This document shows positions 4,733 through 26,393 of a DNA stretch of 28,669 bases, piece by piece (position 1 is the first letter of the stretch; the number at the start of each line of letters is the position of its first letter). Source of the DNA: a virus (Duplodnaviria; Caudoviricetes); IMG/VR virus record IMGVR_UViG_3300046786_000085, positions 1 through 28,669 of that record. One strand, 5' to 3'. The notes beneath the pieces are model-generated. The model saw nothing but the letters and a program-made list of their open reading frames with translations. It did not search any database and was not told the origin of the DNA. Made by a program: the position numbers and the translations under genes.

Positions 4733-4739
4733 TAGAATC

Positions 4740-4841: not shown

Positions 4842-4860
4842 ACTTTATTAGGAGAATCAG

Positions 4861-5286
4861 ATGGACGACGAAGTTCAGAACAGAACTACCCCCACAGACT
4901 TAGCAAAGCTAACGTCAATCTACATCAAGATCAGGGACAGACGTGCCGACAACAAGCGCATGTTTGAAGCTGAAGACAACGACCTCAAAGAGCAGATGGA
5001 TGTGCTTGAAGCACAGATGCTCGATGTATGCAAAGAGATGAATGCTGACAGCATTCGCACCCCACACGGCACAATCATTCGCTCGGTTAAGTCACGGTAC
5101 TGGACGAATGATTGGGATTCAATGTACGACTTCATCGAGGAGCATGGTGCATTTGGCCTGTTAGAGAAACGACTTCATCAAACAAACATGAAAGACTTTC
5201 TCGCTGAGAATCCCACAGTTCTTCCACTTGGCCTCAATGTGGAGAATGCTTATACCGTGGTTGTTAGACGTTCTAAGGAAAAATGA
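4861..5286 (+). CDS. Conserved phage protein, coiled coil plus beta domain (possibly Gam/Gp157-like)
   Basis: TAGGAG RBS; helical N-terminus then SIRTPHGT...DWD...FI...LLEKR...PLGL; fold guess is tentative. Confidence 0.75.
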   Translation: MDDEVQNRTTPTDLAKLTSIYIKIRDRRADNKRMFEAEDNDLKEQMDVLEAQMLDVCKEMNADSIRTPHGTIIRSVKSRYWTNDWDSMYDFIEEHGAFGLLEKRLHQTNMKDFLAENPTVLPLGLNVENAYTVVVRRSKEK

Positions 5287-6176
5287 AAATGAGTAACCTC
5301 ACAATTATCAATCAAGACCTCCCCGACTTTCTGCAAACCGCAGGTGTTAGCGAGCTTACAAAACAACTCGCCGGTAAGACTGGCGTTAAACGCATCGTGC
5401 CTAAAAACGGAATCTTCCGTAAGACAGTCGGCGGTGAAGAGATGGGCAAGGTCAAGGGTAACTTGAGCGCGATCATCGTCAATGCTTCCCCACACGTCGG
5501 TCGTATTTTTTACGCAAAGCAATGGAGTCCTGACGCCGAGCCAACTGCACCTGACTGCTTCTCTAATGACGGTCGCGCACCCGACGCAGGTTCAGTGAAC
5601 CCACAAGCAAGTAGCTGTGACAACTGCCAACAGAACATCAAAGGTTCAGGCATGGGTAACTCTAAAGCTTGCCGCTACTCACGCCGTATTGCTATGGTGT
5701 TGGAAGAGGACTTCGGTACTTCACTCGAAGGCGAAGTCTATCAAATGAACTTGGCATCCAAGTCATTGTTCGGCGAAGGCGCAGGGGACAACACCCACAC
5801 CTTTGAAAACTATTCCAAGTATTTGTCCAACAACGGCAAGAGCTTGGACTACGTTGTTACGCAGATCAGCTTCAACGAAGAGAACGATAACCAGTCCGTG
5901 CTGTTCACGCCGACTGGCTACATCAACAAGGCGCAGTACGCTGTTACTAGCGAAGTTGCTAAGAAACCTGAAGTGCTGAAGATGGTGGTTATGACACCAT
6001 ACCAAGCAGACATGGCGGGTAAGCCTAAGTTGGAAGCACCAGCACCTAAAGCCGCCGAGCCTAAAGCTGAGTCTCCCATCGAGGAACCGACTAAGCGTGA
6101 GAAGAAGCCTGAGCCAAAGCCCACTGTCAAGAAAGACCTTGACTCTGTGGTGAAGGCTTGGAGCGACGAGGAGTAA
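5283..6176 (+). CDS. Putative single-stranded DNA-binding protein
   Basis: Cys cluster (PDCFS, CDNC, KACR), Pro/Lys/Glu-rich linker, aromatic-acidic tail WSDEE; lies between helicase and primase. Confidence 0.6.
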   Translation: MKMSNLTIINQDLPDFLQTAGVSELTKQLAGKTGVKRIVPKNGIFRKTVGGEEMGKVKGNLSAIIVNASPHVGRIFYAKQWSPDAEPTAPDCFSNDGRAPDAGSVNPQASSCDNCQQNIKGSGMGNSKACRYSRRIAMVLEEDFGTSLEGEVYQMNLASKSLFGEGAGDNTHTFENYSKYLSNNGKSLDYVVTQISFNEENDNQSVLFTPTGYINKAQYAVTSEVAKKPEVLKMVVMTPYQADMAGKPKLEAPAPKAAEPKAESPIEEPTKREKKPEPKPTVKKDLDSVVKAWSDEE

Positions 6177-6179
6177 ACA

Positions 6180-6428
6180 ATGACCTACGGTTACAGCCAG
6201 AGCTTGGTGTACGCCAATAGAAAAGCAAGCATCAAGTCTTTGGGTGTGGCCTTGGGTCGTGTATGTATTCGCGCAAACATCAGTGTTAGTAAGATTGCGG
6301 ATGACTTTGGGGTGACTCGAATGACTATCTACAATTGGTTCAAGGGCGACCGAGAACCGCACCCGAGTTATGCGCAAGCAATCAGCGATTACATCACCCA
6401 CACCAAAGCCCACCACCAAATAAAGTAA
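6180..6428 (+). CDS. XRE/Cro-family helix-turn-helix regulator
   Basis: SVSKIADDFGVTRMTIYNWFKGDREP; GAGGAG RBS. Confidence 0.88.
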   Translation: MTYGYSQSLVYANRKASIKSLGVALGRVCIRANISVSKIADDFGVTRMTIYNWFKGDREPHPSYAQAISDYITHTKAHHQIK

Positions 6429-6431
6429 AAC

Positions 6432-9284
6432 ATGTCAACCTTCGATCTACTCGACACGGTACTGCCACCGGAAGGGCGCTACTGCGTACTAGGGATTGGT
6501 AGGTATCCTGACCAGCATTTTGTAGATACTAAGGAAGAGGTTGAAGAGTTAGCGCAGCGCTTTGTCAAACGTAAGGTTGACGCATACTTCGGTTGCGCCA
6601 AGTACGGCTCGTTAGACAACCGCACCCATGAGAATGCCAAATACTTCCGTGCATTGTGGATGGACATTGATTGTGGCCCCACAAAAGGTGTACCCGACGA
6701 AAAAGGCATTATCAAAGGCTATCTCGATCAGCAGATTGGACTCGATGAGTTCAAGAAGTTCTGCAGTGCAGTCGGCTTACCAAAGCCAATATTAGTCAGT
6801 TCCGGTTACGGCATTCATGCGTACTGGCTACTGGAAGAAACAGTGTCTCGCCGAGAGTGGGAGCCACTAGCCAATCGGCTTCGTGAGTTGTGCGTTGAGC
6901 AAGGGTTAATTGTGGACTCCTCAGTCTTTGAGGCTTCACGTGTCCTGCGCATCCCCGGCACATTCAACTTCAAACAAGAAGAGGCCAAAGAGGTAACAGT
7001 ACTCAACACACTGACGCCTCGCATGACATATCAGGAAGTCAAGGACTTGCTTGGTGCGCCTGAACCAAAAGACGATGTACCCGACTTCATCCCGCGCACG
7101 ATGAGCCCGATGATGGAAGCACTGATGGGCAACAAGGTCAAGCGGTTTAAGACGATCATGCTCAAGGCCGAGAATGGTTGCCTGCAACTTAACCACTGTT
7201 TTGCAAACCAGAACAGCATTGAAGAACCACTGTGGCGCTCCGCTCTTTCTATTGCAGCTTTTTGCGTAGACGGAGACAAGGCCGCACATAAACTGTCGAG
7301 CGAACATGAAGGCTACGACCCCGCACAGGTTGACGAGAAGGTTAACAATCTGCGCAAGAAGGGTGGCCCACATCACTGCTCAACATTTGCGAAGCTCAAC
7401 CCACAAGGTTGTGACGGTTGCATCCATAGAGGCAAAATTAAATCGCCCATCATGCTCGGTGTTGAGATTGAAGAAGCCGACGCAGAAGATAACGAATACG
7501 CCGTCGAAGATGAGAACGGCGAGGTTGAGATACAGCATATCCCTGAGTACCCATTCCCATTTTTCCGTGGGAAGAAAGGTGGCGTCTACATTCGCCCTGA
7601 GAGCGAAGATGCCGAAGCCGAGCCGAAACTTGTGTACGAGCATGACTTCTATGTAGTCAAACGCATGCGTGACCCTGAAACTGGCGAAGTGGCTTTGTTC
7701 CGTTTGCACTTACCGCACGATGGTGTCCGAGAGTTCAGCATTTCAACAATGTCCATCTCCTCGCCTGATGAGTTGCGCAAACAGTTGGCACAACACGGAG
7801 TTGTAGCCCATAAGTCACAGTATGAGTTGCTTGCTCGGTATGTTGTGTTCTTTATTAAAAATTTGCAGTACGTTAGAAAGGCAGAGACCATGAGAACCCA
7901 GTTTGGTTGGGTCGAGGGTGACAGCAAGTTCATTCTCGGCGATCGAGAAATTACAAAAGATGGAGTGTTTTATAGCCCGCCGTCAAGCACAACGAAAGAT
8001 GTTGCCGAAAAGATTGTGCCCAAGGGCTCGCTTGAGAAGTGGAAAGAAGCATTCAACATGTACGCACGTCCCGGCCTCGAGCCTCATGCGTTTGCCGCAC
8101 TCACAGCGTTTGGCTCACCACTGTTGAAATTTACAGGTCTTGAAGGCGCGATCATCAACGTGATTCACCCCGAGTCCGGTTCAGGTAAGTCGACTGCATT
8201 GTTTATGTGCAACAGTGTGTACGGACAGCCCAAAGAGCTGACCTCCATGTACAAGGACACGTTCAACGCAAAGATGCACCAGCTCGGCGTGATGAACAAC
8301 TTGCCCAACACGATCGACGAGATTACCAACTTGAGCGGTATGGAGTTCTCTGACTTGGCGTACAGCATCAGCCAAGGCCGAGGCAAAAACAAAATGAAGG
8401 GCTCGACCAACGAGTTGCGAATTAACAACACCAAGTGGCAAGGTATTACCCTATGTTCCGCCAACGCCAGCTTTTACGAGAAGTTAGGCGTAGCCAAGAA
8501 TACGCCCGATGGTGAGTCCATGCGTTTGCTTGAATACAAAATCGAACCCAACAGCATCATCGACGTGCAAGAGGGCAAGGAGATGTTTGACCACCAACTG
8601 CGCGAGAACTTTGGGCATGCGGGTGATATTTACATCCAGTGGATCGTCAACAACTTGGAAGAAGCAATCGCCCTGATGCGTAAGGTACAAGCTCGACTTG
8701 ACCGAGAAGTTCAGTTCAATCAGAAGGAGCGCTTTTGGTCAGGTGTATCAGCGTGCAACATAGCTGGTGGTTTGATTGCCGGTAACTTGGGTCTGCACGA
8801 CTACGACATGAAGGCAATCTACGACTGGCTCAAAGGCATGTTGGGCGAGATGCGGTTTGAAATCCAAGCCCCGAACTCCACACCTGTAACAATCCTTGGT
8901 GAGTTTGTTAACGCCCACATTAATAATGCTTTAGTAGTAAATGGTGAGGTCGATGCTCGTAGTAACTTACAGTCGATGCCCATGCTCGAGCCCCGTGGAG
9001 AGCTGCTCATACGCTACGAGCCAGATACAAAAGAACTTTTTATCGCGGCCAAACAATTCAAAGACTTCTGTGTCAAACAGCAGATCAACTACAAGACTAC
9101 CTTGAAAGAATTGGGCAACGCCAAGATTTATGTAGAGGGTGTCAACAAGCGCATGTCCAAGGGCATGAAGGTTGTGTCCCCCGCAGTTCGGGTGCTGAAG
9201 TTTGACGCCTCAGCCGCCGAGTTCTTACAGATGGACGCCTTTGTAGCTACCGATGAAAATCGAGACAGTGTCGTATCAGATTGA
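6432..9284 (+). CDS. Primase-helicase fusion (RepB-like AEP primase, Cys-rich domain, DUF927-type helicase)
   Basis: WMDID, SSGYGIHAYW, RVLRIPGTFN primase motifs; QFGW, Walker A ESGSGKST, Walker B TIDE, ISQGRGK. Confidence 0.9.
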   Translation: MSTFDLLDTVLPPEGRYCVLGIGRYPDQHFVDTKEEVEELAQRFVKRKVDAYFGCAKYGSLDNRTHENAKYFRALWMDIDCGPTKGVPDEKGIIKGYLDQQIGLDEFKKFCSAVGLPKPILVSSGYGIHAYWLLEETVSRREWEPLANRLRELCVEQGLIVDSSVFEASRVLRIPGTFNFKQEEAKEVTVLNTLTPRMTYQEVKDLLGAPEPKDDVPDFIPRTMSPMMEALMGNKVKRFKTIMLKAENGCLQLNHCFANQNSIEEPLWRSALSIAAFCVDGDKAAHKLSSEHEGYDPAQVDEKVNNLRKKGGPHHCSTFAKLNPQGCDGCIHRGKIKSPIMLGVEIEEADAEDNEYAVEDENGEVEIQHIPEYPFPFFRGKKGGVYIRPESEDAEAEPKLVYEHDFYVVKRMRDPETGEVALFRLHLPHDGVREFSISTMSISSPDELRKQLAQHGVVAHKSQYELLARYVVFFIKNLQYVRKAETMRTQFGWVEGDSKFILGDREITKDGVFYSPPSSTTKDVAEKIVPKGSLEKWKEAFNMYARPGLEPHAFAALTAFGSPLLKFTGLEGAIINVIHPESGSGKSTALFMCNSVYGQPKELTSMYKDTFNAKMHQLGVMNNLPNTIDEITNLSGMEFSDLAYSISQGRGKNKMKGSTNELRINNTKWQGITLCSANASFYEKLGVAKNTPDGESMRLLEYKIEPNSIIDVQEGKEMFDHQLRENFGHAGDIYIQWIVNNLEEAIALMRKVQARLDREVQFNQKERFWSGVSACNIAGGLIAGNLGLHDYDMKAIYDWLKGMLGEMRFEIQAPNSTPVTILGEFVNAHINNALVVNGEVDARSNLQSMPMLEPRGELLIRYEPDTKELFIAAKQFKDFCVKQQINYKTTLKELGNAKIYVEGVNKRMSKGMKVVSPAVRVLKFDASAAEFLQMDAFVATDENRDSVVSD

Positions 9285-9461: not shown

Positions 9462-9527
9462 ATTGTCATGGAGTCCTTGGGTTGATTGCTACTCTCCTTG
9501 CCCCGGCTAACCACCGGGGATTTTTTT
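9462..9527 (+). ncRNA. Putative antisense small RNA with anti-start-codon and anti-SD tracts
   Basis: Promoter-terminator unit of ~66 nt containing UGUCAUGGAGUCCUU and CUCUCCUU. Confidence 0.45.
9501..9527 (+). terminator. Rho-independent terminator at the junction of the two arms
   Basis: CCCCGG-ctaacca-CCGGGG followed by A and T7. Confidence 0.9.
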
Positions 9528-12500
9528 ATTTATTCCGCCCTTTTTCTTCCGCTTCTCTTGCGGCTTCCCTAGATGGACGCAGTGCTTTGATAAACATAGG
9601 CACGTTCTTCTCAGTCAGCGTAACACCGCGATAAGACTCAGCCCGTTGCTCTGCACGTTTCTCGATTGATCCAGTAATGTCATCAGACTCGAGTGCGTAG
9701 CTTGGGAACTCACGATTAAACTTGTTAACTCGCTTGCTCAAAGTTTCACTGAATCCTTTGAAGTTCTTTTCACGGAACTCACGATCAAGTCGGTTAAGCA
9801 ACTGAGTGCGTTCGTTCACAATCTTTTGCTCGAGGCCAATAACCTTGAAGGTCACGTACTGTGTATTTGCAAGTTGGTCTGAACGGAAGCCGACTGCTTG
9901 GAACAGCAACTGACCTGTTGAGAACGCATCCTTGGACAGAATCTTCGTACCCTTGTTGTCCTTAGCTCCTTCTTTCCACAGATCGTAGGAAGTCTTGAAG
10001 TTACGGAAACCAGCGGGCAGTGCGCGGTTAACGCCCTTATCGTAGTCACCCTGCATGAAGGCTTCGTATGCCTCGGCCCAAGACAAGAACATGTTTGCAG
10101 ATGGGCCAGCTTTCTCCAGCGCCAAAGCCATTGCACCTTCTCTAACAGTCTTAGGTTCTTTAGTATCGCGGAACCACAAATTGTTAAGACTTGTACGGCC
10201 CGAAATATCCAAGCCTGTCATCGCATTGGCTAGGCCACGCTCAACAATCTCAGACAACTTCTTACCGCCGATGCGTGTACCGCCGAGTTGCTCTTCAAGC
10301 CATACTGTACGGAACCACAACTCAAAGCTAAGGTTACGCAACTCTTTAGGCCAATCTTTGTCTCCACGCATGTGTTCCCATGCCGCACCGATCAGACCCA
10401 TGACAGTGCTGAACATTGGCAAACCAGCCGCGCCAGCGAGAACAAACGTAGTACCCAAAGTACCGAAGAACTTCTTGATTGCTTCTTCACGAGTCTTGCC
10501 GTGCATTGGCTTGACCATCTCCATGAAGTTTCTAAGCAGATACAAAGTCACATGCACGGGGTACATCATGAACTGAGTCAAGACTTTACCGACTGCGTTC
10601 TTCATAAACAGTGGGCGGTTGTACTGACCGTAGTTGCCAAGTGCTTCGTTGGTATCGATAACCGCTTGATCGACTGCGGCGTTGTGTGCCTCAGCAGGGG
10701 TCATGCTACCTTTAGCCATCATCTCACGATTCAAGCGATACGAAGATAGGAACATCATCTCGCGAGAGATACGCTCGGTAGAGTGCATCAAGCCACCCAA
10801 CACAAGCACGTCGACAGTATCTTTACCAAACGACATGATTGGGCCGCTTCGCTTGTCAGTCGGCGTAGCCTTGTAGTCGAAGATTGAGCTTGCGTATGTA
10901 GATGTAGTTACATCACGAGACAGCATGTCGCGAATAGCTCTGCGCTCATCTGGAGTCATGCCCTTTGCGTATTCCACAGAAGGTGCGACCCAAGACATAG
11001 AACCGTCTGGGTTCTGTTTGTACATGCCGAACTGACCCCACATCTTAATCATGCGACCCATCTCACGGGTTGCACCGACGGAGCCGTACTTCCACAACAC
11101 AGGCATACCAGTCTGGAACAAGCTTAGTGGTTGCAAGAGAGCAGAAGACGCGCCGCCCAAGTACCAGATGAACGATGCTTTATTAAGAGCCCCGGCAATC
11201 TTTTCTCCGGTTGTGTCTTTTGTATAGGCAAGCTCGTCAGTAACCCTGCGCTCCATCTCGGCAACGAATGGTGTGTAACGTGGACGGTTCTCAATAGAAT
11301 CTCGCGCCCCTGACAACGAAGCACGAAGCATCGGCGCGTACTTAATGCGAGCAAGCTGAGTTGCCATCTTAGTTGTGGTGTGAGCCACGTTGCGCAGTAA
11401 GTCAGGACGGAAACCTGTCACGCCCTTACGATGGATAAACTGCTTGCGGAAGCTTTGGTCAGGCATCGCTTGCAAGTAGACTTGATACACCGCATCCTTG
11501 AGTTTGTCTTTGGAGTCGGCATCGCCCAAGTTAGAGCTGTCAATCACATCAAAGATTTCACGCAAAAGGATGGAGCTGTCTGAAGAGATACGACGCAACG
11601 AACTGATGTCGTTGTCAAACACAAACTCTTTGTCAGTCAGCAACTCTTCAAGGTTAGCGGCACGGCGCTTCTGATATGTGTCCCAACTTTCCCCGGGCTT
11701 CTGTTTAATACGCTCGTCGGCGAAGGCTTGCATAGCATTGTCACGCTCAGCCATGCTTTCAAACATGAAGAACTTACGTGTCTTACCTTTGCCGATAGCC
11801 AACCAATAGTCGCCTTCACGAACGAGCGGGAAGTATGGGCTGATCTTGCCACCCTGCTCATAGATAGACCTGATCTTCTTCATCAAGTTTGCTTGCTGAG
11901 CAATCGACATATTGGACTTGGTAATCTGGTCGTCCAACAGTTTGGTGAAGTAAGCCGACAGTCTCTCGAAGTGCTGTTTGATCTGCACAAACAAACGCTG
12001 GCCTTCAACACCAAGATCGGCGTACTGTTTATCGAGGCTCTCGCTACGCTCATCTGCGGATGGATCAGAAGGATCAATTTCTGCAAGCGTAGATTCAAAC
12101 GCGATACGGTCTAGCTTAGCACGCAAAGTTTTGTCTGCACGGAACGCACGATCAATGCTATCCACCAACTCGCCAGAAGCCTTGAGGAACTGAAGAGTCA
12201 TGCCGTTCATTTTCTGAAGCAGCACGTTTGTATGTACCAGCTCTGGAACTGCATTAGCAGCCCACTGAACCAAGAAGTCAGTTGTCGGCAAGCGCACTAA
12301 AGCATTGCGCTGATGGATGGATGCGCGATTCCACAAAGCACGGAGCGCAGGGATAACCTCTCTTGGGTTCTGCGCCATTTGAAGCAGGGATACACCCTTG
12401 GCGAACTTGTCGCCCTTGACCGACTCCTTAAATTGCTCGCTTACTTCGGCAACTTTTTTGTCGACTTCCTTCTGACTTCTTATCGAGCCTCGGACTGCTT

Positions 12501-15500
12501 CAGTTTCGTTATCATCTCCGCTGTCGTCGACGACTTCTCCAGTATCCGCAGTGCCTTCGCCAGTGATTGCTGATAAGCTGGATCGCCCTTCTCCTGTTTC
12601 GCTAAGGCTTCCCACTGGCTTAGGAGTACCTTCATCTGAGATTTCTTCGGCGCTAGCGTCTTTGAAGCGGTTTCCACGAGGCTTGAGATTTCCACTTTTG
12701 AACTCCTTCTCTAAGAATTTGAATATATCTATGTTGGCTGCAATGTGGTCTGTCAACGCCTTTTGCACTTGGCGCATGTCGAAGCCGGGGAAGACTTCCA
12801 ACAATACCATAATCTTCTGCATCTCGGCAGGGAACTCAGCTCCGTGATTACGCACCTTAAAGTGAGCCAGCTCATGAATCATTGTGCCTATCATAGAAAG
12901 CGCAATCTCTTGTGGCGTGTCACTAAGCTTGGTAACAGACGGATTGATAAACATGCCTTTAAACGGCAGCATTACGTTGACACCGTAGTACTCGTTGTCA
13001 ATACTTGTACCGACTACTTGTGTAGCTAGATCACCGTATTCACCGCGTCCGGCGGCAATCAAAGCGTTGCGCAGATACATGAATGTCTGACCAACACCAG
13101 CCAAATACTTATCGTAGGCAGTACCAAACTCAGCACGTGCAGCTTCAGACAACGAGATATCAGCAGGCAACGCACCAGCGGCCTGCATCTTTTTAATCAG
13201 GTCATCCATCCACTCGCCGGAGTACTCTTCACCGTTAGATTTGTAAGCAACGTAATCGTTGTTGGCATTGATTGTTACTTGCCAACCTAGTCCAGTTAAG
13301 AACGCTCTTAGTTTGTCCGCATCATTTGGTATGCCGATAACTGTGTTGTCATGAATCATGACCCGATTAGGGTCAAGTTCGTTCTGCGGAATAGTCAGCT
13401 CATCAATACGAATTGACACATTCTTCAGGTCATCGTTTGTAAGTTCAGGAACTTGACGGTTGTTTACATACAGCACGCCATCCTTAACCTCAACTTTGTC
13501 GCCGGGTTTGATAAGCGTGAACGCAGTATCTGTTAGCGGTGCTTTAGGCTCAAGAACTTCTTTGGCCGACAGCGTACCATCGGGGTTGACATACTGCACA
13601 TCGCCAAAGTTTCTAATACCCGCAGCCAAGTCCAACTGACTGTAGATTGCAGTTATGTAGTTTGTGATCTTGTTGAAGTCTTCCTGCGCTACTTTGGAGA
13701 AACCTTGACGGTTCAACTCAAATGGGTAGCCAGCATCTTCGGGTTTGACGTGCGGGTCTGGCGAAACATCAATAAAAAAGTTTCGCTTAATTTCTTTACC
13801 GTCGAAACCGGGTCTGTCCTTGATTGATATATCAAACTGCCACAGACCATTGGACAGCACGTGCGCATTCTTACGAGGCCAATGTTCTTGCTCTTTAAGT
13901 TCTTTGGATACATAGATACGAGCAACACCCCATGCAAAACGCACGTTGGCAAAAGATGTGTACTCATCTATTGGGAAGTTTGCGCCAAGGGGCAAAGTTT
14001 TGGTTCTGTAGCCATCGTTGAACGTAACGTCAATGTCATCAAACAACGGGCTTTCCGTAAGCACGGGCGCACGCTCAAGATACCAGTCAGAAAAAGTAAT
14101 ATCCTTTTCTTGGCCAGTAGACTCGTCAGTGTACTTTTCTGGTATTTGAACAATAACAGCCGTGCCGTGACCGTCTGGGAAGTACTTTTGCTCGTACTCA
14201 CTTACTGTGTCTGGGTCGGTTGAAGTTGTAATAGTTGGCCCACGATCTGGATCGTCAAGCGCGGCTTTCAAATCATCACCGGTTGTAACCATGCGGGACA
14301 CAACCCCATCACGCAATGACACAACTTCCAACTGCTTGTTCTCAAACAGGAACAACATCTTGGCTACACCAAGACCGCCCGAAGCACGTGTAGTACCTTT
14401 GACCGTACCAGCAATCTGCAAGAACTGATTGCCCATCACGCTAGTCGGCATGCCGGGGCCGTTGTCCACAACACTAATAGTGCGCTTGCTTGAGTTTACA
14501 GATACATCAATCTTGCCCTTCTTGAGCTGACCTTTTTCAAGCGCTTCTTTAATAGCATCGAATGAGTTTTGGAACAGCTCTTTGATCGAGACCTTTGCAA
14601 TATCGTCAGGCGTGCCGTACAGTTTGTTACCAAGCATCTTAGCCAGACGTTGTACGTTAGCGCTGGGCTTGGCTTTGATTTCTTGATCGCCCTTTTTGCC
14701 CATGCCAAAGATAGAACTACTTGCAACTTCACCGCTGAGCTTAGCCCATGCAGGTGTACGTGAAGACAAGAGCTTGTCGGTGACAATAATCAAGTCGGTC
14801 ATTGCGTTGGTATCGTCATCGCTCATACCAAACAAATCGCGGATGCTGTTAACGAAGCGGTTGAAGAACGGTGTGTCTTCCTCGTAACCATGCGCACGTA
14901 ACAGAAACTCCTGCATCGCAGGGTCAGTCATGCCGTAGGCAACGAACTCTCGTGGGTCATCAAAGATTTCGCCATGAGATGCAAGCACGCTCATCTCTTT
15001 GGTCAGAGTGCCGTTAGCCGACAACTCATTGAACAGAGTACCAGCACTGTTCATTGTTCGGATCAAATCTTGGGCGGCACGTACTACTGCTGAGTTTGTG
15101 TTGATGCCTTTTTGAATCATTGCATAGGCCAAAGCCAACTTGCGGTTCGTAGCCGCATGCAACAACTCGTGCATGATCGTAGTGTTATTGACGCCTTGGT
15201 CTACACCAAAGGACGCACCGCGAACATAAATTACTTTGTCGCCAGTCCTGTAGTTCTCAATATACAGAGCAATAGAACGATCCCACTGCTGAGCATTACG
15301 AGTCTTCTTCAACTGTTCTGGAAGCTCGTCACCCTTCTCGATCACAACAAACTTAACGCCGTTGACAAACCCACGGAGACGTCTGCCCAACTTCTTTTGG
15401 AACAGATTGCCTGTCTTAATAATGTGAGACAGGGCTTGGGCACCCGTAGTGAACTTTTTGAATGTGTTGTCGGCTGCGCCCTTAGCAATAGTGACTGCGC

Positions 15501-18351
15501 TAGATGGGCCAGTAGTTTTAGCCGCAGCCATACCAGCCTGAATGTCGGCTTTCTCTTTTGCGGTAATGCTAGGGTGGTTAAGCGCCTCTTTAATCCTTGT
15601 GCTTACAGCCGTACCACGAAGGTTGGGAGACTGCTGCAGTTTGAACAGCTCTTTAATCAGCTCACGTTTTTCATCACGGCGCTTTTGCTGAGCTTCTTTA
15701 ACCTCGTCGTCATTAGCGTAGATGGACTCATCCATCGGCTGAGCCAGCTTAGTAAGCGCCTTGGTAATGCGTGTGACTGCATCGTCGGCACGCTTCTTCT
15801 CAGCCTGAATGGGCTTCTTACCCTCAAGCTTTTGCTTGCGCTCTTCCTCAGTTAGAACGGCAGGGCGACCACGTGGTTTACCTGTAGCTCTTGAGGGTCT
15901 TGGTTTCGCTTGTCCTTTTTGCGTTGCTTGCTGGGTTTGAGTGGTTTGAGTGCCAACTTCTGCTCCTGTGGTTGTGGGTTGAGCGGTTATATCTTCATTA
16001 AAACGACGTTTGTATTCCCAAGATGCAGCACTAGCAATGTCTTCTCGGTCGTTATTTTTTCCGTAGTTGTAAGACTCAATGAGCCCCTCTTTAGAAACAT
16101 AAAGAGGGTTTGTAATATTTGTGATTGCCTTAACAAGCGGATTGTCTACGCCTACTCTACCTTGGTCTTCTTCAGCTTTCCTAAGTGCGCCACCTTCTAT
16201 CGTCAATCTGCGGTATACAGACTGGCGTAGGGCGTTTTCAATTTCATCGGTTTCTTCTACTGCAGTGGGCTTGCTTTCTTCTCCACCAGCAGTGCTTGTA
16301 ACATCCGGTCTAGCAGGAACCAATCCACTTGTGTCAACTCCAGCAACTCCTCCGGTGGTGGGCTCTGCACTGGGCTGTCCAGCCACTCGAGCGCCTTTTC
16401 GACTTGTTTTACTGACAGGTTGTCCAGCATTTTTCTTCTCCTCCTTGGCCCGCTTAGCAGCAAGTTTGGCTTCCTTTTCCTGTTCCTTAAAGAGCGCATC
16501 AGCTTCAGCCTCTTCCCTAGCTTGTTGGAACGCCTTCAATATGGCGCGTTGTGGGTCTTCACCAGCAGTGATTAAGTCTTGGGCAATCTGAGACACACGG
16601 TCTGCCGGTACTTGTGTAGCCAAACGCTTGGCTTGCGCTGCGTCTTTTTGCTCGCGCTCAGTAACTTCAGCCTCGGCTAACTCACGCGCATCTTCCTCTG
16701 GGATACCGGTTGCCACAATCTCAGCCGCACGAGTATTAATCTCCTGTTCACGCTCTTCAGCGGTGGAAATCTTTGGTGCTTTGAACTCATCTAAGGGGGT
16801 AAAAGTAAGTTCTTTTTCCTCCCCGGGGCGCTCTTTGCCAACTTCGCCAAGGTCTTCTTGCTCTTGACGCTGCTGTCTTTGTTGTTTGGTTAAGAACCCT
16901 TTGGACTGCGCAAGTAGTTGAGATATGCCTTCGTAGCTCTCGTCTCTTTTGTAGCCGCCCTCACGTGGGCCTGTAAATGCTTCCAGTCTTTGGCGAGTCT
17001 CTGGGGACACCAGCGGGCTAACTGCCTCTGCTCCTAACTGTGCACCTTTTGTAGCTACAACCGTACCGCCAGCAGTTGCGCCAGCTTGGAGAATTGTTTG
17101 ACGCAGGGTCTCTTCAAGTTGCTTATATAAACCAACAAGACTTGGGTTCTTATTCGTGCCGATGCCGGGGAGAATATCAATGCCGTACTGAGTCAGCGTA
17201 GTTGCCATCTCAGGGGGAATCTCAGACACGATAGCCTTAGACATGTACTCGGGGATACCGCGCACACCGTTCTTAGCAATGTAGCCTTTCAGCCCAGCCA
17301 ACGCCTTAGTCATACCAAAGCGCTCAAAGATAACCTCGGCAGCAGCCATTGGTACTGCACGTGCTGTAGCAGCCTCACCAGACAAACCAGCGGCGCGACC
17401 TTCGCTATAAGAATCACCAAACTGCTGGATTGCAGCCTGCGCCAAAACTGGAGCCGCTGTACCTGTGAACGCACTCAGAGCAAGGAAAGGAGCTTGAGAT
17501 CCCAGACTTGTCATCGCACCTTGGGCAGAACGCTCAAAGATAGACTTGCCTTCAGGGATAGCTTTACCGCGAGCTTCTTCAACACGCCGAGCAGATATTA
17601 AGTCTCTGCTAAATTGGTCGTCGCCAGTCAGATCGGCGTAAGCGCTAAGTAAGCCAAGGCCAGCTTTTGTGTATTCTGAAGTAACACCAGCACCCACACG
17701 TCTCCAGAATCCTGCATCTTCCAACTCTGCTGCACGTTTAGCGGCTTCCTCTGAGGCGGCCTCACCAACAACATCGCGGTTCAGTTGCTGGAAGTCTGGC
17801 TTGATACGGCCTTGAAGAGCTTGCAATCTTGCTTGCCCCTGAGCAATCTCAGGGCGAAGACCTTGTTCTTCAAAGCGTTGGGTTTGGGTTTCTAAGCGGG
17901 GGTCAGTGTAGTACTGAAGCTTTTTGGATACGACTTTGTCGGCTTCTGCGTAACGCCCAGCAATAGCACGAGCAGCACGACCATATACATCACCACGTTG
18001 GGTAAGTTTTTCCAAAGCAGCTTGGCGTTGCTCTGGGGGTACGGCATCCAGTTGCGCTTTAACAGCGTCGACAAACTCAGGACGAACAACATACTTGTCC
18101 TCAGTTGCTAAGGGGGCGGGCATCTCCCTACCCTCTAGTACGCTTTTCTTTGGCTGGGGTGCAGCCATGATTTCTTCTGCACCAGTTCCCAAAGGAGAAC
18201 CAAAATCGTAATCGTCCGACGGCGCAGCTTTGGCCTTGGGTTTGGCTTTAGGCTCAGGTTTTTCCAACGGCGTGAAGGTTAACCCTTCTGCTCCGCCCCC
18301 CTCATCTGATCCTGCTTCGTTATTAACTTCAGAGAGGGGTACGAATTTCAT
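9526..18351 (-). CDS. Giant polyvalent (probably virion-ejected) protein, ~2941 aa: AT-hook, zincin, GHKL ATPase, second HExxH peptidase, PLxRFG-type C-terminal region
   Basis: Start moved to ATG 18351 (ATGA overlap with upstream stop). KPRGRP; HELLH...EFVAYG; ELFQNSFDA/DNGPGM/GGLGVAK/GHGT; HELAH-x4-NHG; YFPLVREGDY...RKGVTGF...NRP...LAGAAGLP. Confidence 0.9.
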   Translation of the reverse strand: MKFVPLSEVNNEAGSDEGGGAEGLTFTPLEKPEPKAKPKAKAAPSDDYDFGSPLGTGAEEIMAAPQPKKSVLEGREMPAPLATEDKYVVRPEFVDAVKAQLDAVPPEQRQAALEKLTQRGDVYGRAARAIAGRYAEADKVVSKKLQYYTDPRLETQTQRFEEQGLRPEIAQGQARLQALQGRIKPDFQQLNRDVVGEAASEEAAKRAAELEDAGFWRRVGAGVTSEYTKAGLGLLSAYADLTGDDQFSRDLISARRVEEARGKAIPEGKSIFERSAQGAMTSLGSQAPFLALSAFTGTAAPVLAQAAIQQFGDSYSEGRAAGLSGEAATARAVPMAAAEVIFERFGMTKALAGLKGYIAKNGVRGIPEYMSKAIVSEIPPEMATTLTQYGIDILPGIGTNKNPSLVGLYKQLEETLRQTILQAGATAGGTVVATKGAQLGAEAVSPLVSPETRQRLEAFTGPREGGYKRDESYEGISQLLAQSKGFLTKQQRQQRQEQEDLGEVGKERPGEEKELTFTPLDEFKAPKISTAEEREQEINTRAAEIVATGIPEEDARELAEAEVTEREQKDAAQAKRLATQVPADRVSQIAQDLITAGEDPQRAILKAFQQAREEAEADALFKEQEKEAKLAAKRAKEEKKNAGQPVSKTSRKGARVAGQPSAEPTTGGVAGVDTSGLVPARPDVTSTAGGEESKPTAVEETDEIENALRQSVYRRLTIEGGALRKAEEDQGRVGVDNPLVKAITNITNPLYVSKEGLIESYNYGKNNDREDIASAASWEYKRRFNEDITAQPTTTGAEVGTQTTQTQQATQKGQAKPRPSRATGKPRGRPAVLTEEERKQKLEGKKPIQAEKKRADDAVTRITKALTKLAQPMDESIYANDDEVKEAQQKRRDEKRELIKELFKLQQSPNLRGTAVSTRIKEALNHPSITAKEKADIQAGMAAAKTTGPSSAVTIAKGAADNTFKKFTTGAQALSHIIKTGNLFQKKLGRRLRGFVNGVKFVVIEKGDELPEQLKKTRNAQQWDRSIALYIENYRTGDKVIYVRGASFGVDQGVNNTTIMHELLHAATNRKLALAYAMIQKGINTNSAVVRAAQDLIRTMNSAGTLFNELSANGTLTKEMSVLASHGEIFDDPREFVAYGMTDPAMQEFLLRAHGYEEDTPFFNRFVNSIRDLFGMSDDDTNAMTDLIIVTDKLLSSRTPAWAKLSGEVASSSIFGMGKKGDQEIKAKPSANVQRLAKMLGNKLYGTPDDIAKVSIKELFQNSFDAIKEALEKGQLKKGKIDVSVNSSKRTISVVDNGPGMPTSVMGNQFLQIAGTVKGTTRASGGLGVAKMLFLFENKQLEVVSLRDGVVSRMVTTGDDLKAALDDPDRGPTITTSTDPDTVSEYEQKYFPDGHGTAVIVQIPEKYTDESTGQEKDITFSDWYLERAPVLTESPLFDDIDVTFNDGYRTKTLPLGANFPIDEYTSFANVRFAWGVARIYVSKELKEQEHWPRKNAHVLSNGLWQFDISIKDRPGFDGKEIKRNFFIDVSPDPHVKPEDAGYPFELNRQGFSKVAQEDFNKITNYITAIYSQLDLAAGIRNFGDVQYVNPDGTLSAKEVLEPKAPLTDTAFTLIKPGDKVEVKDGVLYVNNRQVPELTNDDLKNVSIRIDELTIPQNELDPNRVMIHDNTVIGIPNDADKLRAFLTGLGWQVTINANNDYVAYKSNGEEYSGEWMDDLIKKMQAAGALPADISLSEAARAEFGTAYDKYLAGVGQTFMYLRNALIAAGRGEYGDLATQVVGTSIDNEYYGVNVMLPFKGMFINPSVTKLSDTPQEIALSMIGTMIHELAHFKVRNHGAEFPAEMQKIMVLLEVFPGFDMRQVQKALTDHIAANIDIFKFLEKEFKSGNLKPRGNRFKDASAEEISDEGTPKPVGSLSETGEGRSSLSAITGEGTADTGEVVDDSGDDNETEAVRGSIRSQKEVDKKVAEVSEQFKESVKGDKFAKGVSLLQMAQNPREVIPALRALWNRASIHQRNALVRLPTTDFLVQWAANAVPELVHTNVLLQKMNGMTLQFLKASGELVDSIDRAFRADKTLRAKLDRIAFESTLAEIDPSDPSADERSESLDKQYADLGVEGQRLFVQIKQHFERLSAYFTKLLDDQITKSNMSIAQQANLMKKIRSIYEQGGKISPYFPLVREGDYWLAIGKGKTRKFFMFESMAERDNAMQAFADERIKQKPGESWDTYQKRRAANLEELLTDKEFVFDNDISSLRRISSDSSILLREIFDVIDSSNLGDADSKDKLKDAVYQVYLQAMPDQSFRKQFIHRKGVTGFRPDLLRNVAHTTTKMATQLARIKYAPMLRASLSGARDSIENRPRYTPFVAEMERRVTDELAYTKDTTGEKIAGALNKASFIWYLGGASSALLQPLSLFQTGMPVLWKYGSVGATREMGRMIKMWGQFGMYKQNPDGSMSWVAPSVEYAKGMTPDERRAIRDMLSRDVTTSTYASSIFDYKATPTDKRSGPIMSFGKDTVDVLVLGGLMHSTERISREMMFLSSYRLNREMMAKGSMTPAEAHNAAVDQAVIDTNEALGNYGQYNRPLFMKNAVGKVLTQFMMYPVHVTLYLLRNFMEMVKPMHGKTREEAIKKFFGTLGTTFVLAGAAGLPMFSTVMGLIGAAWEHMRGDKDWPKELRNLSFELWFRTVWLEEQLGGTRIGGKKLSEIVERGLANAMTGLDISGRTSLNNLWFRDTKEPKTVREGAMALALEKAGPSANMFLSWAEAYEAFMQGDYDKGVNRALPAGFRNFKTSYDLWKEGAKDNKGTKILSKDAFSTGQLLFQAVGFRSDQLANTQYVTFKVIGLEQKIVNERTQLLNRLDREFREKNFKGFSETLSKRVNKFNREFPSYALESDDITGSIEKRAEQRAESYRGVTLTEKNVPMFIKALRPSREAAREAEEKGRNK

Positions 18352-19928
18352 TTGGCGTATCCGATTAATTTTCCTGATGAATCCAGAATTTCCCAACCCT
18401 TGGCGGATTTACTACCAATTGTTGATCCTGCTGGCGCTCCCTTAATGGTACTGATATCTGGAGCATTTGTCGAATTTTTGTTTACCCCACCACCCGAGGG
18501 TTTACCCTGAGTTTGTCGGCGGGCAAGGATACGGTTACGTAGTGCTGTTTCAGCGGCATCTTTCTCCGCTGGTGTAGTGGCATTCTGCCAATCTGGGTCA
18601 AAGATTCGATCTTTAGCAACTTGTTTATCAAGCTCAGTATCAGCCTTGCTAGTGATCTTTGCTTCCTCAGTCTCAGCTTTTTCAGGATTCCACTGAGCTG
18701 TTTTAGCCAAACTCAATGTTTGCTCAAGCGCTTTCACACGGCGTTGCAGTGCTGCGTTTTCTGGATCTTCTGCCAATGCAATACGAGCGGCAGCAAGTTG
18801 TTTGTCCACCGCAGGAATAGCCGCATTTCCAGAAGCACCACGCGCAGATGCTTTATTGACTCTGCCCATGTCAGTAGCCAACTTACCGAGTGCCTTGTCT
18901 CTTTCAAGCTCCGCCTTGTTGTAGTCAGCTCTGGACTTGCGTGCCAGCTCGACAGAAGCTTGGGCCGCACGGGAGTTACCCATACGTTCTTTACGTTCTG
19001 AGTCGGCAATATGGTATTCCATCTGAGCCATAGAGCGCTTGGCGGCTTGGTCAGCACGCTGTGCCGCACCGTAAGATTGGGCAAGTTTAGCCCCGCCTTT
19101 TGCCAGACCACGTATAGCGTTATTGCCTTCCAACACTGCGGAAGCTGCCTCTAACAAACCTACACCTTTGTCGTACTCCAGATTGCCAGTACGCTCTTTA
19201 GCTTGCTCGGCTAAGTCTGCTCGCATAGCTGCAAATGGGCTTGGCCCCGCAGCTTTAGTAATTCGCTCGTATGCCTTGCCGTAGGCTTTCTCTTCTTCCT
19301 CGGGAGTCATGTCCCTTAGATTGCGGCTTGCAATACGACGAGCAGTAGCCAAAGATAGTTTGTTTGCCGCAGCCAGTCCAGCAGGGCTACCTTCACCACC
19401 TTCTAACTCATCAATAATCGATAAGTAGTCATCCTGCTCACCATCGCCTTCGCCTTCGGAATAACTTGGACTTGCACTGACTGCTGGAGTAGCCATTTCG
19501 TCAGTAAGTCTAGGATCAACATAACCCCTGTCTTGGAACGCAACGATACCGCCTTCGGCGTAGTCATGCTCAGGAGTCGGCAAACCAGCCAAACCACCCG
19601 ATGCTTGCATAACAGGAGCTTGAGGGGCTTGAGGGGCTTGAGCCATTTGGGGTGGCATACCTTGAGGAGCCTGACCCATTGCACCGGGCACCATAGCACC
19701 GAGGCCTCTTTGGGGGGCCATTGTTTCAGCAACGATAGAGGGGGAAGAAGTAGGCTGTTGTGCCCTCCCCGCCATAGCCATCATGCTAGATTCTTTTAAC
19801 AAACGCAGTGCGTTTAGCGCCGTGTATGGGTCTAACTTCGGATCAGGACTTTGCCCCATCACCGCAGCTTGTAGGGCTTGTGGATTTTGCTTGAACCGCT
19901 CGGCGTAGACAGATGCCATGTCGATCAT
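18348..19928 (-). CDS. Putative internal virion/ejection protein (526 aa)
   Basis: Ala/Gln-rich helical protein with YAEGGIVAF; TAAGGA RBS; position before the giant gene. Confidence 0.7.
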   Translation of the reverse strand: MIDMASVYAERFKQNPQALQAAVMGQSPDPKLDPYTALNALRLLKESSMMAMAGRAQQPTSSPSIVAETMAPQRGLGAMVPGAMGQAPQGMPPQMAQAPQAPQAPVMQASGGLAGLPTPEHDYAEGGIVAFQDRGYVDPRLTDEMATPAVSASPSYSEGEGDGEQDDYLSIIDELEGGEGSPAGLAAANKLSLATARRIASRNLRDMTPEEEEKAYGKAYERITKAAGPSPFAAMRADLAEQAKERTGNLEYDKGVGLLEAASAVLEGNNAIRGLAKGGAKLAQSYGAAQRADQAAKRSMAQMEYHIADSERKERMGNSRAAQASVELARKSRADYNKAELERDKALGKLATDMGRVNKASARGASGNAAIPAVDKQLAAARIALAEDPENAALQRRVKALEQTLSLAKTAQWNPEKAETEEAKITSKADTELDKQVAKDRIFDPDWQNATTPAEKDAAETALRNRILARRQTQGKPSGGGVNKNSTNAPDISTIKGAPAGSTIGSKSAKGWEILDSSGKLIGYAK

Positions 19929-19937
19929 GATTATTCC

Positions 19938-20963
19938 TTAGACCAAATTGTTCAAAGCAAGTGCGCCAATACCACCAGAACGAGCCACGCCACCGTCAGC
20001 CATGAGCTTGCTGATACCAGCCGCGCCAAGACCCAACGAAGCAATAGTCTGTGCTGTAGAAGGAGGAGCTTGGTAGATAGACGAGCCAGTCTGTGTCAGC
20101 GGTACACCACGAATGATGTCTGACATAAACGACAGATTCTTGTATGGATAGTTCTGCGCATTCAGATAGTCTTGGTACTTGACGTCAAGGTCTTTCTGCA
20201 TCTGCGCTTGTTGCTGCAAGCCGTATTGGTTTTGCAGCGCATTGATACCCATGTTCTGCTGATACTGTTGCTGGCCTAACTGACCCAGACCTTGAGCGCC
20301 AGACAGAGCAGTTTGTAAACCTTGCAAGCCTAAACCCGCGCCAAACTGTTGCTGTTGTGCGTTGAGTTGCTGAGCCGCTTGGTTCTGAGCCTGTGATTGG
20401 TTGAACTGTTGTTGCGCGTTTTGATATGCGGCTTGCAGTCCTTGGGCAGTAATGTCACCCTTTTGACGAGCTAAGTTAGCTGCTGCTTGCGCACGCATAA
20501 GATAATCACCGCTGCCACCAAAAGCACCGGATTTAGCAGCCTGAGCGCCCTGAGCCTGTTGAGCAATTGCAGCTTGACGAGTTGCATCTTGTTGTTGGCG
20601 TTGAACCACGTTCTCCATATAAGGAGACATGTACGCTTGTACGTTATTGCCCGTAAACTGCTGAGCTTGGTACGGGTTAAATGTGTACTGAGTATTAAGT
20701 GCGCCCAAACCAGCCAAGCCAGCCAAAGCAGTTGCGTCTTGCAACTGAGGCTGAGACTGCATCAAAGCAGCGTTTTCGTATGATTGTTGTTGCAAAGGGG
20801 AGAACTGCGCAGTACGTTCACCCTGATACTGCATGTATGGGTTGTAATTTACATCCGTAAGCGCTTGCGCTTGACCCAGTAAGTCTTGTGCGTAGGGCGC
20901 AACTTCCGGCGCAAAGCCGTAGTTCGTTTGCGTAATTTGTGTTGGGGTTGAGCTATCAGCCAT
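19938..20963 (-). CDS. Putative DNA ejection/pilot protein (341 aa)
   Basis: Gln/Ala/Gly-rich, YMSPY...GAFGGS motif, C-terminal hydrophobic LGLGAAG; TAAGGA RBS. Confidence 0.75.
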   Translation of the reverse strand: MADSSTPTQITQTNYGFAPEVAPYAQDLLGQAQALTDVNYNPYMQYQGERTAQFSPLQQQSYENAALMQSQPQLQDATALAGLAGLGALNTQYTFNPYQAQQFTGNNVQAYMSPYMENVVQRQQQDATRQAAIAQQAQGAQAAKSGAFGGSGDYLMRAQAAANLARQKGDITAQGLQAAYQNAQQQFNQSQAQNQAAQQLNAQQQQFGAGLGLQGLQTALSGAQGLGQLGQQQYQQNMGINALQNQYGLQQQAQMQKDLDVKYQDYLNAQNYPYKNLSFMSDIIRGVPLTQTGSSIYQAPPSTAQTIASLGLGAAGISKLMADGGVARSGGIGALALNNLV

Positions 20964-23492: not shown

Positions 23493-24333
23493 ATGTTGAC
23501 GTCACGATAATCGATGGTGACGCTGGGTGTACAGGAGAAGTTCCGGGCGGGTATGTAGCCGCTACTGTGTTGCCTGTATCCGATGCAAATAGCAATTGAA
23601 CATAGTCACCCGCATTCAGGGGCTGCACCAAGTTCCAAGAAATAATGGCCGTGCCGGGTTTACCACCGTGAATAGAGGGGATCGTGGCAATACCAGCGCT
23701 GTACGGAATATCTACGCCATTCAATCGGAACCAAATAGTCACGTTGTCAATTGTGTTGTCAAACGTCAGCATCTGGATACTGAACTGGATGTTATAAATG
23801 CCAGCGGTCTCGTGAACAATCTTTGTTTTGTCGGCAGGGTCAATAGACACGCCGTTGCTCACCGTGGTTTGAAGCAAGGTGAGGGGGGCCGATACCGTAG
23901 AAGACGCAAGCGTCTGGGCCTCGGATACAGAAACACCAGCGGTGTGCGCTACGTTAGTTGACCCATAAGCACCACGAGTAATGCCTGTAAAAGTTGTAGC
24001 GGTCTTACCTGTGTACTTAATCAATTCACTGCCAATAATCAAACCGCCAGCAGAAATAAACCCAGCCGTTGACGTGACTTGAATTGGCGTTGTGCCGTTG
24101 TTGGTCATGTTGGCGGTCAGCGTGGTGTACCCGTCTTGGTAAAACGCGCCATTAGGAAATTCAAGATACTTACCACCATTATTACCAAACAACTCCGACA
24201 AAGAATTGCGTAATTGGTTAAAGTACAAACGCAAAACGTTGGAATACTGATCTTGATATCGACGCTCATACTCCTGCGTACCCAACGGCAAATTGGGGGG
24301 AGCAGGGTTGATAATCCTTTTGTTAGTCGCCAT
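23470..24333 (-). CDS. Virion structural protein with C1q/TNF-like C-terminal domain (287 aa)
   Basis: N-terminal helix LRLYFNQL; AGIYNIQFS...WFRLNG...LNAGDYVQL; internal ELIKYTG...ITRG...AHTAG module. Confidence 0.7.
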   Translation of the reverse strand: MATNKRIINPAPPNLPLGTQEYERRYQDQYSNVLRLYFNQLRNSLSELFGNNGGKYLEFPNGAFYQDGYTTLTANMTNNGTTPIQVTSTAGFISAGGLIIGSELIKYTGKTATTFTGITRGAYGSTNVAHTAGVSVSEAQTLASSTVSAPLTLLQTTVSNGVSIDPADKTKIVHETAGIYNIQFSIQMLTFDNTIDNVTIWFRLNGVDIPYSAGIATIPSIHGGKPGTAIISWNLVQPLNAGDYVQLLFASDTGNTVAATYPPGTSPVHPASPSIIVTSTFVSALPA

Positions 24334-26393
24334 CAGCGCCTGCCGTCAGGACGAATGTCAATACGAGGAGCGCCCAACTGCCAAGCAGTGTTGATCTGGT
24401 TGGAGCTAATCTTGAAGATCATCTGGCGACCACGCATGCGTGTGAAGATCATGCCGGTGAACTCTTCAGTAATGTTGTATGAAGACGAAGCGCGTACTGG
24501 CTGATTAGCATCGCTTGTAACCCCAGAGCCAGAGTTAGCCAAGCCATACAAGTCCATCGTCACTGTGGCTTTATCCCCTGTCGGAGAGTCTGTAGCATTC
24601 TCAAAAGTTAAGTCTGGAAGGATACGCCAGACAAAGCCAAAGTTGTGGCCGTCACCAATGTCAAACTCAGACGAACTAATATAAGCATTAATTGCAGTAG
24701 TCGTAGCAGTTTCATTGTCGTTCAGCCCTTGTTCTTGGTTAACCAAGTTGTTGCTGTACGTAGCTGCCAAAGGATAGTCGCGCAGACCGGAATCTAACCA
24801 AGCAGTACGCGCCATGGTTCCGTAATACCAGATTTTTTCTGCGTAGTTGTATATAGCGTAACGGTCAACCGTAAAGCTACCAGCAGAGCAGTAGAACCAC
24901 CACACTTCGTTGAAGCCTTCACTTGTGCCGCAGAAAACTTGAGCCGCCTGCTCTTGGTTAATGTCTTGGAAGATGTAGCGGCGCAGGTCACAGTTGAGCG
25001 TTTGCACACGGCCATCGTAGGCATAGAACTTGTCCACACCCATCCAGTACACAATACCGGAAGCAATCACAGCCGAGTTCGGGCTGATGATAGAGATGTT
25101 GTCACCGAGCAACTGAGGTGCCCACACGTATGGAGGGCCAAGGTACTGAAGCGAATAGACACTAGAGTCTGTAAACACCACAATCTCTTGACGAGTCTGA
25201 ACTGTTGTAACAATCTCAGAGCCGTGGGATAACCGCACAAAACCTGCTTGGTTGGTGGGGTCTGGCGTCCAGTTATAGATGTCGTCCTGCGCTGACCAGC
25301 GAATCAGCATCGGGTCAATCGTTGAACTGCCGTAGTCGTTTGTACCAAACACAATCAAGAAACGTGATGTGTCTGAAACAGTAAATGTGTTCTGTATAGT
25401 TGGCGCGTCCACAATCTTAGACACAGAGCCTGAGCCAGATGACGAAGTATTTACTTCATTACCAGAACCATCAAGCAAGTTAAACGTCAGGCCGTTAACT
25501 TGGAACACGTAGTACGTTACACCTGCGGTGATACCAGTCGGCAAAGACCCACCAGAGAACTGAAGTGCTGCGCCTTCTGTGTAAAGAATAGTTGATGTAA
25601 CAACTGTTGGCGATGCGTTAGTGAATGTAACTGTGCCGCCAAGGGTATTGAGTGCAGTCCCACGTACAGTTAGACCGGCAGTAGCATCCCAGTAATAAAT
25701 GTTGCCACCACGAGGGCCATAAATTAAGTCCTCACCGTAGTTGATCTGGTTCCACAACTGCAAAGCCGTTGTAGATGTTGTGCCTACGCCCCAAACACCA
25801 GCGCCCCAAGCACCAGCGCCCCATCCGGTTAGCGGAACAGCATAAGCAGGGCCAGCGTTTACTTGATACGCAGCGGATACAGAAGCGCCGCCATAAGAGC
25901 CCGCAGACAACGCAGTCGGCGTTGTGATTGTGTATGAGTTAGCGTTAACTACTGTGATTTGATATTCAGCATTAAGCGTTGAAGCGTATGTGCCTGTTGC
26001 GCCACTAAACGTAACAAAAGAGCCAGTAGTTGCGCCGTGTGCAGTAGCTGAAACGGTAACTGTAGTTGTGCCGTTGGCTGTAAAAGGGTCTGTGCCAAGC
26101 GTTACTGTTGTGCGAATAGGAGTAACGTCGTAGTACGCACCGCCATTCTGGATGTAAAACTTAGTGTTTGTGCCAACGCCGACAAGATTTAAACTCCCAA
26201 GCGTCACCCAATTCCACAAAGACCGACATACGCCGTCATAAGTAAAACCAGAAATACGCTGCCAACCGCCAATAACTTCTGGATTGCCTTGACGGAAACG
26301 GATTTTGTCGCACTCGTACCAACCACCCTCTGTGGTGTATCGAGTATTTTCCCGGTTGACGCCCGGCTTAAACAGAACTTTTTGTAATGGCAT
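24333..26393 (-). CDS. P22 gp10-like tail nozzle/DNA stabilization protein (686 aa)
   Basis: KPGVNRE...GGW start, LIRWS, FNEVWWFY, WYYGTMARTAW, RMRGRQ...PDGRR end; FCCH-like inserted beta modules. Confidence 0.8.
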   Translation of the reverse strand: MPLQKVLFKPGVNRENTRYTTEGGWYECDKIRFRQGNPEVIGGWQRISGFTYDGVCRSLWNWVTLGSLNLVGVGTNTKFYIQNGGAYYDVTPIRTTVTLGTDPFTANGTTTVTVSATAHGATTGSFVTFSGATGTYASTLNAEYQITVVNANSYTITTPTALSAGSYGGASVSAAYQVNAGPAYAVPLTGWGAGAWGAGVWGVGTTSTTALQLWNQINYGEDLIYGPRGGNIYYWDATAGLTVRGTALNTLGGTVTFTNASPTVVTSTILYTEGAALQFSGGSLPTGITAGVTYYVFQVNGLTFNLLDGSGNEVNTSSSGSGSVSKIVDAPTIQNTFTVSDTSRFLIVFGTNDYGSSTIDPMLIRWSAQDDIYNWTPDPTNQAGFVRLSHGSEIVTTVQTRQEIVVFTDSSVYSLQYLGPPYVWAPQLLGDNISIISPNSAVIASGIVYWMGVDKFYAYDGRVQTLNCDLRRYIFQDINQEQAAQVFCGTSEGFNEVWWFYCSAGSFTVDRYAIYNYAEKIWYYGTMARTAWLDSGLRDYPLAATYSNNLVNQEQGLNDNETATTTAINAYISSSEFDIGDGHNFGFVWRILPDLTFENATDSPTGDKATVTMDLYGLANSGSGVTSDANQPVRASSSYNITEEFTGMIFTRMRGRQMIFKISSNQINTAWQLGAPRIDIRPDGRR

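Follow-up and report, generated by a model that had tools for sequence, protein, structure and literature searches.

What does an Hsp90-like ATPase joined to a metalloprotease do in the middle of a giant phage protein? The question is raised by IMG/VR record IMGVR_UViG_3300046786_000085, a 28.7-kb virus record (28,669 nucleotides, hereafter the window) whose plus strand encodes replication genes and whose minus strand bears a structural and lysis operon. One minus-strand gene encodes a giant protein in which a GHKL (Bergerat) ATPase is followed by a Wss1/SprT-like zincin, and we call this two-enzyme module the cassette. It is a common cargo of phage polyvalent proteins that has apparently gone undescribed so far. 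The reading that we rank first, with slightly less than even confidence, is that the cassette serves a virion-packaged polyvalent protein as an accessory effector, a protease that is injected, gated by ATP and directed at host proteins. An earlier note, made from the sequence alone, had proposed an ATP-driven clamp and protease delivered with the DNA, possibly against host defence proteins; the underlying observation is real and conserved, the structure is as proposed and the cassette is mobile; the interpretation given in that note is partly supported.

The motifs named in that note are intact and in frame within the open frame of the giant gene, 9526-18396(-), which reaches a TTG at 18396. 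Their positions hold (Table 1) except for KLYG, which had been placed within 14554-14580 and lies at 14614-14625. A module search retrieved 365 giant-protein homologs among 7,996 scored candidates, and at 50% identity the modules form 783, 434 and 274 clusters at E ≤ 1e-3, 1e-10 and 1e-30, respectively. In a 66-row alignment, comprising the window and 65 of 87 full-length locus copies after removal of near-duplicates, the Glu, Asn and Asp of the N-box, the G1 Asp, the lid glycines, the Arg of PFxxNR and HExxH are invariant in all rows, and the third zinc ligand is His in 65. Given this number of homologs and the 66/66 conservation of catalytic residues, the motifs are not due to chance. Across 150 listed representatives, ExxQNxxD occurs in 142, HExxH-x4-7-H in 132 and both in 127. 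Seven of the eight without the former start within the module; the 18 without the latter comprise six that stop within the module and 12 that retain HExxH, with Glu in place of the third His in 10 of these 12. The ratio of non-synonymous to synonymous substitution rates (dN/dS) against the nearest locus is 0.10 for the ATPase, 0.10 for the middle domain and 0.09 for the zincin. ATPase and zincin are tightly coupled and travel as one unit. At least one third of the module words were found in 17 DNA runs, all labelled as freshwater, lake or aquatic metagenomes and including two possible source runs.

The predicted structure contains the Bergerat fold whose absence would have spoken against the earlier proposal. 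Model residues 1-350 align with the two-domain modules of GRP94, ParE and MORC3, and the Bergerat motifs (N-box, G1, lid G2 and motif IV) are followed by an S5-type second domain. The PFELNRQGF segment, taken in the note as the marker of an S5-like transducer, indeed sits in a loop before the long helix of this domain, and PFELNRQ is likely, judging from sequence, the catalytic-arginine loop; it falls on LNVSRE of HtpG only in a low-threshold full-length alignment, and the isolated domain gives no significant match. The isolated module scores 28.3 bits against HATPase_c (cut-off 26.4). The best PDB sequence matches of the profile are HtpG, TRAP1 and GRP94 (E about 1e-7 to 1e-6), followed by topoisomerase VI-B, and the best Foldseek matches are chaperones, nearly tied with topoisomerase and MORC folds. 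Two uncharacterised giant-virus proteins of about 700-760 residues in BFVD, Hokovirus A0A1V0SGC9 and Yasminevirus A0A5K0UA26, rank second and fifth in the fold search with long alignments, and may share the architecture of the cassette.

The near-tie with topoisomerase and MORC folds, together with the Wss1 fold of the protease half, fits a role in cleaning DNA, in which a MutL/MORC/topoisomerase-like clamp would close on the entering phage DNA and a Wss1-like protease would strip off bound or cross-linked host proteins (nucleoid silencers, trapped enzymes or restriction complexes, for example). The neutral to acidic character of the module speaks against such a clamp, and we regard this role as unlikely.

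The assignment to the Hsp90/HtpG/T4 RIIA branch holds in that the best PDB matches are HtpG, TRAP1 and GRP94 and that RIIA belongs to the same broad branch, whereas the cassette forms a clade separate from both. With the Hsp90 family (HtpG, TRAP1, GRP94) it shares the N-terminal and first middle domains, but a beta connector and the zincin stand in place of the remaining middle domain and the C-terminal dimerisation domain; the latter is absent from the module, whose C-terminal part folds as a zincin. The profile match to E. coli HtpG (95.9%) is limited to the ATPase domain, and the HtpG family model gives 18.6 bits against a full-length cut-off of 371. Seven RIIA proteins match at 97.6%, again in the ATPase domain only (about 150 columns). 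Like the cassette, T4 RIIA is a phage GHKL protein with a similar lid (GGxGxxK), and RIIA proteins account for many BFVD fold matches; according to the available part of the literature, however, RIIA is a stand-alone protein of variable C-terminus whose gene shares an operon with that of RIIB, whereas the cassette is fused into a giant protein. General family scans gave no RIIB-type match among the 21 window proteins. In an ATPase tree of 40 rows, from which a motif filter left out one further locus and in which long branches were flagged, the 20 module ATPases cluster together (90/96), distinct from RIIA (100/99, seven rows only), HtpG (100/100) and four HD-CE-linked ATPases, and so define a GHKL clade whose protease partner is fixed.

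The protease half bears out the reading of HExxH-x5-H as a WLM/SprT/YgjP zincin signature: the model shows a minimal zincin fold, with Wss1 as the top fold match. At loose E values, 46 of the 66 rows match YgjP-like and 29 match WLM, and the window module itself stays below the curated Pfam cut-off for YgjP-like (19.4 bits against 26) and has no WLM match. The motif is shared with Wss1/WLM, SPRTN/SprT, YgjP (DUF45) and minigluzincins; unlike these, this zincin carries an optional insert after its first strand and is fused to a GHKL module. The insert is a small alpha/beta element with a dN/dS of 0.26; it is at least 40 residues long in 35 of the 66 aligned copies, reaches 136 residues in P0077, where it appears duplicated by eye, and could be a specificity module. 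Of the 66 rows, 22 show a weak Peptidase_S26 match in the beta connector, which probably explains why some homologs are labelled 'signal peptidase I'. A second zincin motif, HELLH, absent from the earlier note, lies just upstream of the module in a domain for which no profile match was found; by its motif we read it as being of the MPTase type as defined in the available text of PMC5512222.

We compared the 120 proteins closest to the giant protein in the C-terminal scaffold. The cassette is present in 71 and absent from 49, confirming that the module is optional and exchanged, as the note had suggested might be seen on alignment with related giant proteins. In 26 of the 49 non-carriers the upstream zincin is joined to the scaffold within 16-38 residues, six (P0268, P0270, P0271, P0272, P0274, P0278) carry a further MPTase-like zincin, some 330 residues long, in the cassette slot, and in the other 17 the upstream zincin goes undetected as well. 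In P0006 (1285-1429), P0007 and others, an ART-PolyVal domain lies between upstream zincin and cassette, marking a second cargo slot at about 14724. The scaffold tree requires at least 11 gains or losses of the cassette, a count made without a shuffle control, and P0267, which lacks it, groups at full support with the carriers P0047 and P0052. For rows hand-chosen from the closest relatives, the approximately unbiased test rejects, on the 31-row module tree, the grouping of the window with P0011 and P0024 that the scaffold gives (p-AU 8e-78) and, on the 23-row scaffold tree, the module clade (p-AU 3e-44). In run X3, one contig matches the window only at 12679-14724, with 78 differences, and then continues into other sequence. 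The cassette is a true mobile block, and its optional presence and tree conflict are what is expected of conflict cargo. The idea of swappable effector domains is further borne out by the varied enzymatic cargo of the relatives: co-domains in 16 picked carriers comprise ART-PolyVal, LPD22, LPD38, LPD39, InPase, RadC, C5-methylase and FtsK-gamma, and the tails of 129 representatives fall into nine similarity groups (74, 29, 19, 2 and five singles).

The same comparison bears on a second explanation, that the cassette serves the giant protein itself, acting from within as chaperone and autoprotease to fold, unfold or cut it for packaging, or to release its cargo domains after ejection. The available text of PMC5512222 proposes autoproteolysis for polyvalent-protein zincins, citing the processing of P1 DdrB; the chaperone matches described above, the six relatives with another zincin in the same slot and the lack of any other HExxH in 71 of 111 full-length diverse carriers also point this way. 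By contrast, all 59 long close carriers already possess another HExxH, and 17 of the 49 non-carriers have no HExxH at all by motif search. The existence of stand-alone copies with no surrounding giant protein also argues against it, and we judge self-maintenance rather improbable, if still the strongest competitor.

These stand-alone copies show that the ATPase-zincin pair can exist without a giant protein, as both motifs are retained. L082 (9698-11815) encodes 705 residues amid housekeeping genes of a Chlamydiae metagenome-assembled genome, and L084 (9800-11638) encodes 612 residues in an uncultured bacterium; both have an N-terminal extension of 80-100 residues and group at 100/99 in the ATPase tree. 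Among 200 scored genomes sampled from the phylum of L082, a stand-alone copy was found in the L082 genome alone. L087 (9974-11572; 532 residues, both motifs) lies on a 172-kb contig assigned to a Roseburia metagenome-assembled genome, and its best cultured-phage matches are mostly RIIA proteins, in the ATPase domain only. L085, L086 and L087 are short copies on low-GC contigs, which look phage-like by gene content. Bacterial HD-CE-linked HSP90-like proteins (L091, L093, L095, L096) share the ExxQNxFDA N-box with the cassette. Tiamat likewise couples a GHL ATPase to interchangeable effectors, peptidases included, according to the accessible part of 10.64898/2026.09.30.754977. Tiamat and the HD-CE-HSP90 proteins are, however, host-side and carry TPR-like, nuclease or HD domains, whereas the cassette is phage-side and has a fixed zincin partner with an intact active site.

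The giant gene is the last and largest of an ejection cluster, with the cassette fused mid-protein. Its start is likely the ATG at 18351, because this overlaps the stop of the upstream gene and because P0003, the closest database relative (2,941 residues), aligns from the same Met. The PLxRFG score (Table 1) places the protein in the PLxRFG type, whose members are named without a function in the available text of PMC9505181, and its C-terminus also matches the PHROG 'DarB-like antirestriction'. The scaffold matches 69 of 50,697 phage records, of which the 40 listed show 23-27% identity and include F116, PBC5 and ZX1. We surveyed 80 module-carrying viral loci, near-duplicates included, scoring presence in the locus regardless of position. 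Among the 61 with at least 3 kb upstream, homologs of the ejection gene occur in 35, of the structural gene in 45 and of the 820-aa gene in 54, although the latter matches no family. Ordinary phage genes, including an SNF2 helicase, a DUF927 primase/helicase and a lysozyme, lie at 3320-9284 and 26397-26906, and the window contains no tRNA.

Table 1. Positions of the giant gene, its cassette and neighbouring genes in the window.
Feature	Position	Strand	Remarks
Giant gene	9526..18351	-	2,941 aa from ATG at 18351; PLxRFG-type large polyvalent protein
PLxRFG domain	9604..11838	-	conserved scaffold; NCBIfam NF032893, 337 bits, cut-off 100
Helical end of cassette	12652..12789	-	model
Zincin core	12790..13158	-	Wss1/SprT-like, HELAH-x5-H; motif, fold, alignment
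IHELAHFKVRNHGAEF	12832-12879	-	zincin motif segment
HELAH	12862-12876	-	within the preceding segment
Insert in protease domain	13159..13335	-	optional, hypervariable, ~60 aa; alignment, dN/dS, model
First strand of zincin fold	13336..13371	-	RVMIHDN; Wss1 match begins at model residue 437
Beta-rich connector	13372..13614	-	conserved; model, no assigned fold; Peptidase_S26 match weak, sub-threshold
S5-type second domain	13615..13974	-	model-read boundaries; PFELNRQ loop with invariant Arg precedes its long helix
PFELNRQGF	13699-13725	-	motif
GHKL (Bergerat) ATPase domain	14125..14679	-	N-box KELFQNSFDA, G1 DNGPG, lid GGLGVAK, GHGT; model
GHGT	14161-14172	-	motif
GGLGVAK	14359-14379	-	motif (lid)
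DNGPGM	14449-14466	-	motif (G1)
KELFQNSFDA	14554-14583	-	motif (N-box)
Cargo junction, upstream zincin/cassette	14680..14730	-	relatives insert ART-PolyVal or drop the cassette
Upstream zincin-like domain	14722..15519	-	HELLH 15157-15171, EFVAYG further on; MPTase-type by motif alone
526-aa gene	18348..19928	-	stop overlaps ATG of giant gene; no family match
341-aa gene	19938..20963	-	PHROG 4287 'DNA ejection protein', E 1.9e-11
820-aa gene	20973-23435		no Pfam, PHROG or NCBIfam match
686-aa virion structural protein	24333..26393	-	PHROG 3287, E 4.5e-63; same operon as giant gene

Gene position and family suggest that virions carry the giant protein and eject it into the host along with their DNA. 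Alternatively, the cassette might be cut off, or might act late in the producer cell (for instance against superinfection or in assembly), and never reach the next host. Only part of P1 DdrB is packaged, as stated in the available text of PMC5512222, and the stand-alone copies outside virion operons show that function is possible without packaging. Nevertheless, the fusion of the cassette midway in the last and largest gene of an ejection cluster, and its alternation with cargo types that the same text describes as injected, make this the least probable of the explanations considered, and a decidedly remote one.

Our preferred reading, an injected effector, is based on the optional, exchanged nature of a cargo under purifying selection, on the ejection-type neighbours and on the counter-RexAB role of RIIA. 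Once the giant protein has been ejected, ATP binding would make two cassette copies clamp shut around a protein client, as Hsp90 does, with the invariant arginine of PFELNR sensing the gamma-phosphate; in GHKL proteins generally, dimerisation and closure of the clamp are coupled to the binding of ATP (PMC12733681, available text). Closure might then present the client to the zincin or unmask the zincin. In the most speculative steps, the clients would be host proteins, for example defence components, that stand in the way of infection during its first minutes, and the variable insert would help to set specificity. RIIA, the nearest characterised phage GHKL protein, counters RexAB and is otherwise dispensable in the accessible parts of PMC13716836 and 10.1101/2023.05.28.542683; the available text of Iyer 2021 (PMC7824862) places RIIA among GHKL proteins of counter-defence and deals with SprT-like peptidases apart from it.

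Several points weigh against this reading. The virion location depends on neighbour genes and on distant 'DarB-like' proteins; a 4,515-aa protein of this kind was found in JC1 virions by mass spectrometry (PMC9144972, available text), and this mass-spectrometry-supported JC1 gp69 is absent from the 40 listed of the 69 scaffold matches. The analyses point to no substrate, and the 50,697 phage records yield, in place of a cultured carrier, one weak match over 22% of the module. The fold does not tell protein clamps from DNA clamps, ordinary phage mosaicism would equally produce the patchy presence and tree conflict, and the missing second HExxH in diverse carriers fits self-processing just as well.

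Within the open-access PMC and bioRxiv literature we found no description of a GHKL-zincin pair. The giant protein resembles the phage large polyvalent proteins of Iyer 2017 (PMC5512222, available text) in its PLxRFG scaffold, MPTase-like zincin, late-gene position and swappable ART-PolyVal, InPase, RadC and methylase cargo, and differs from them in that ATPase and protease move as one unit. GHKL, Hsp90, HATPase and WLM do not appear in the main text of that paper, whose supplement of 131 domains falls outside this comparison, as do most subscription papers, and may bear on novelty. Sequence comparison thus far points to a known kind of protein in which the cargo and its GHKL clade are new. 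The energy-dependent proteases Clp, Lon, FtsH, HslUV and the proteasome use an AAA+ ring. If ATP gates the protease of the cassette, this would be a new way of building an energy-dependent protease, and the cassette would be a candidate for counter-defence. In the boldest form of this idea, which we consider doubtful, an ATP-dependent protease on a dimeric GHKL clamp would be injected by hundreds of uncultured phage lineages to destroy chosen host defence proteins within minutes of the start of infection, and would be retargeted by cassette exchange and by the insert in the protease. With its clean borders, confident model and natural stand-alone copies, the cassette is open to direct expression and assay.
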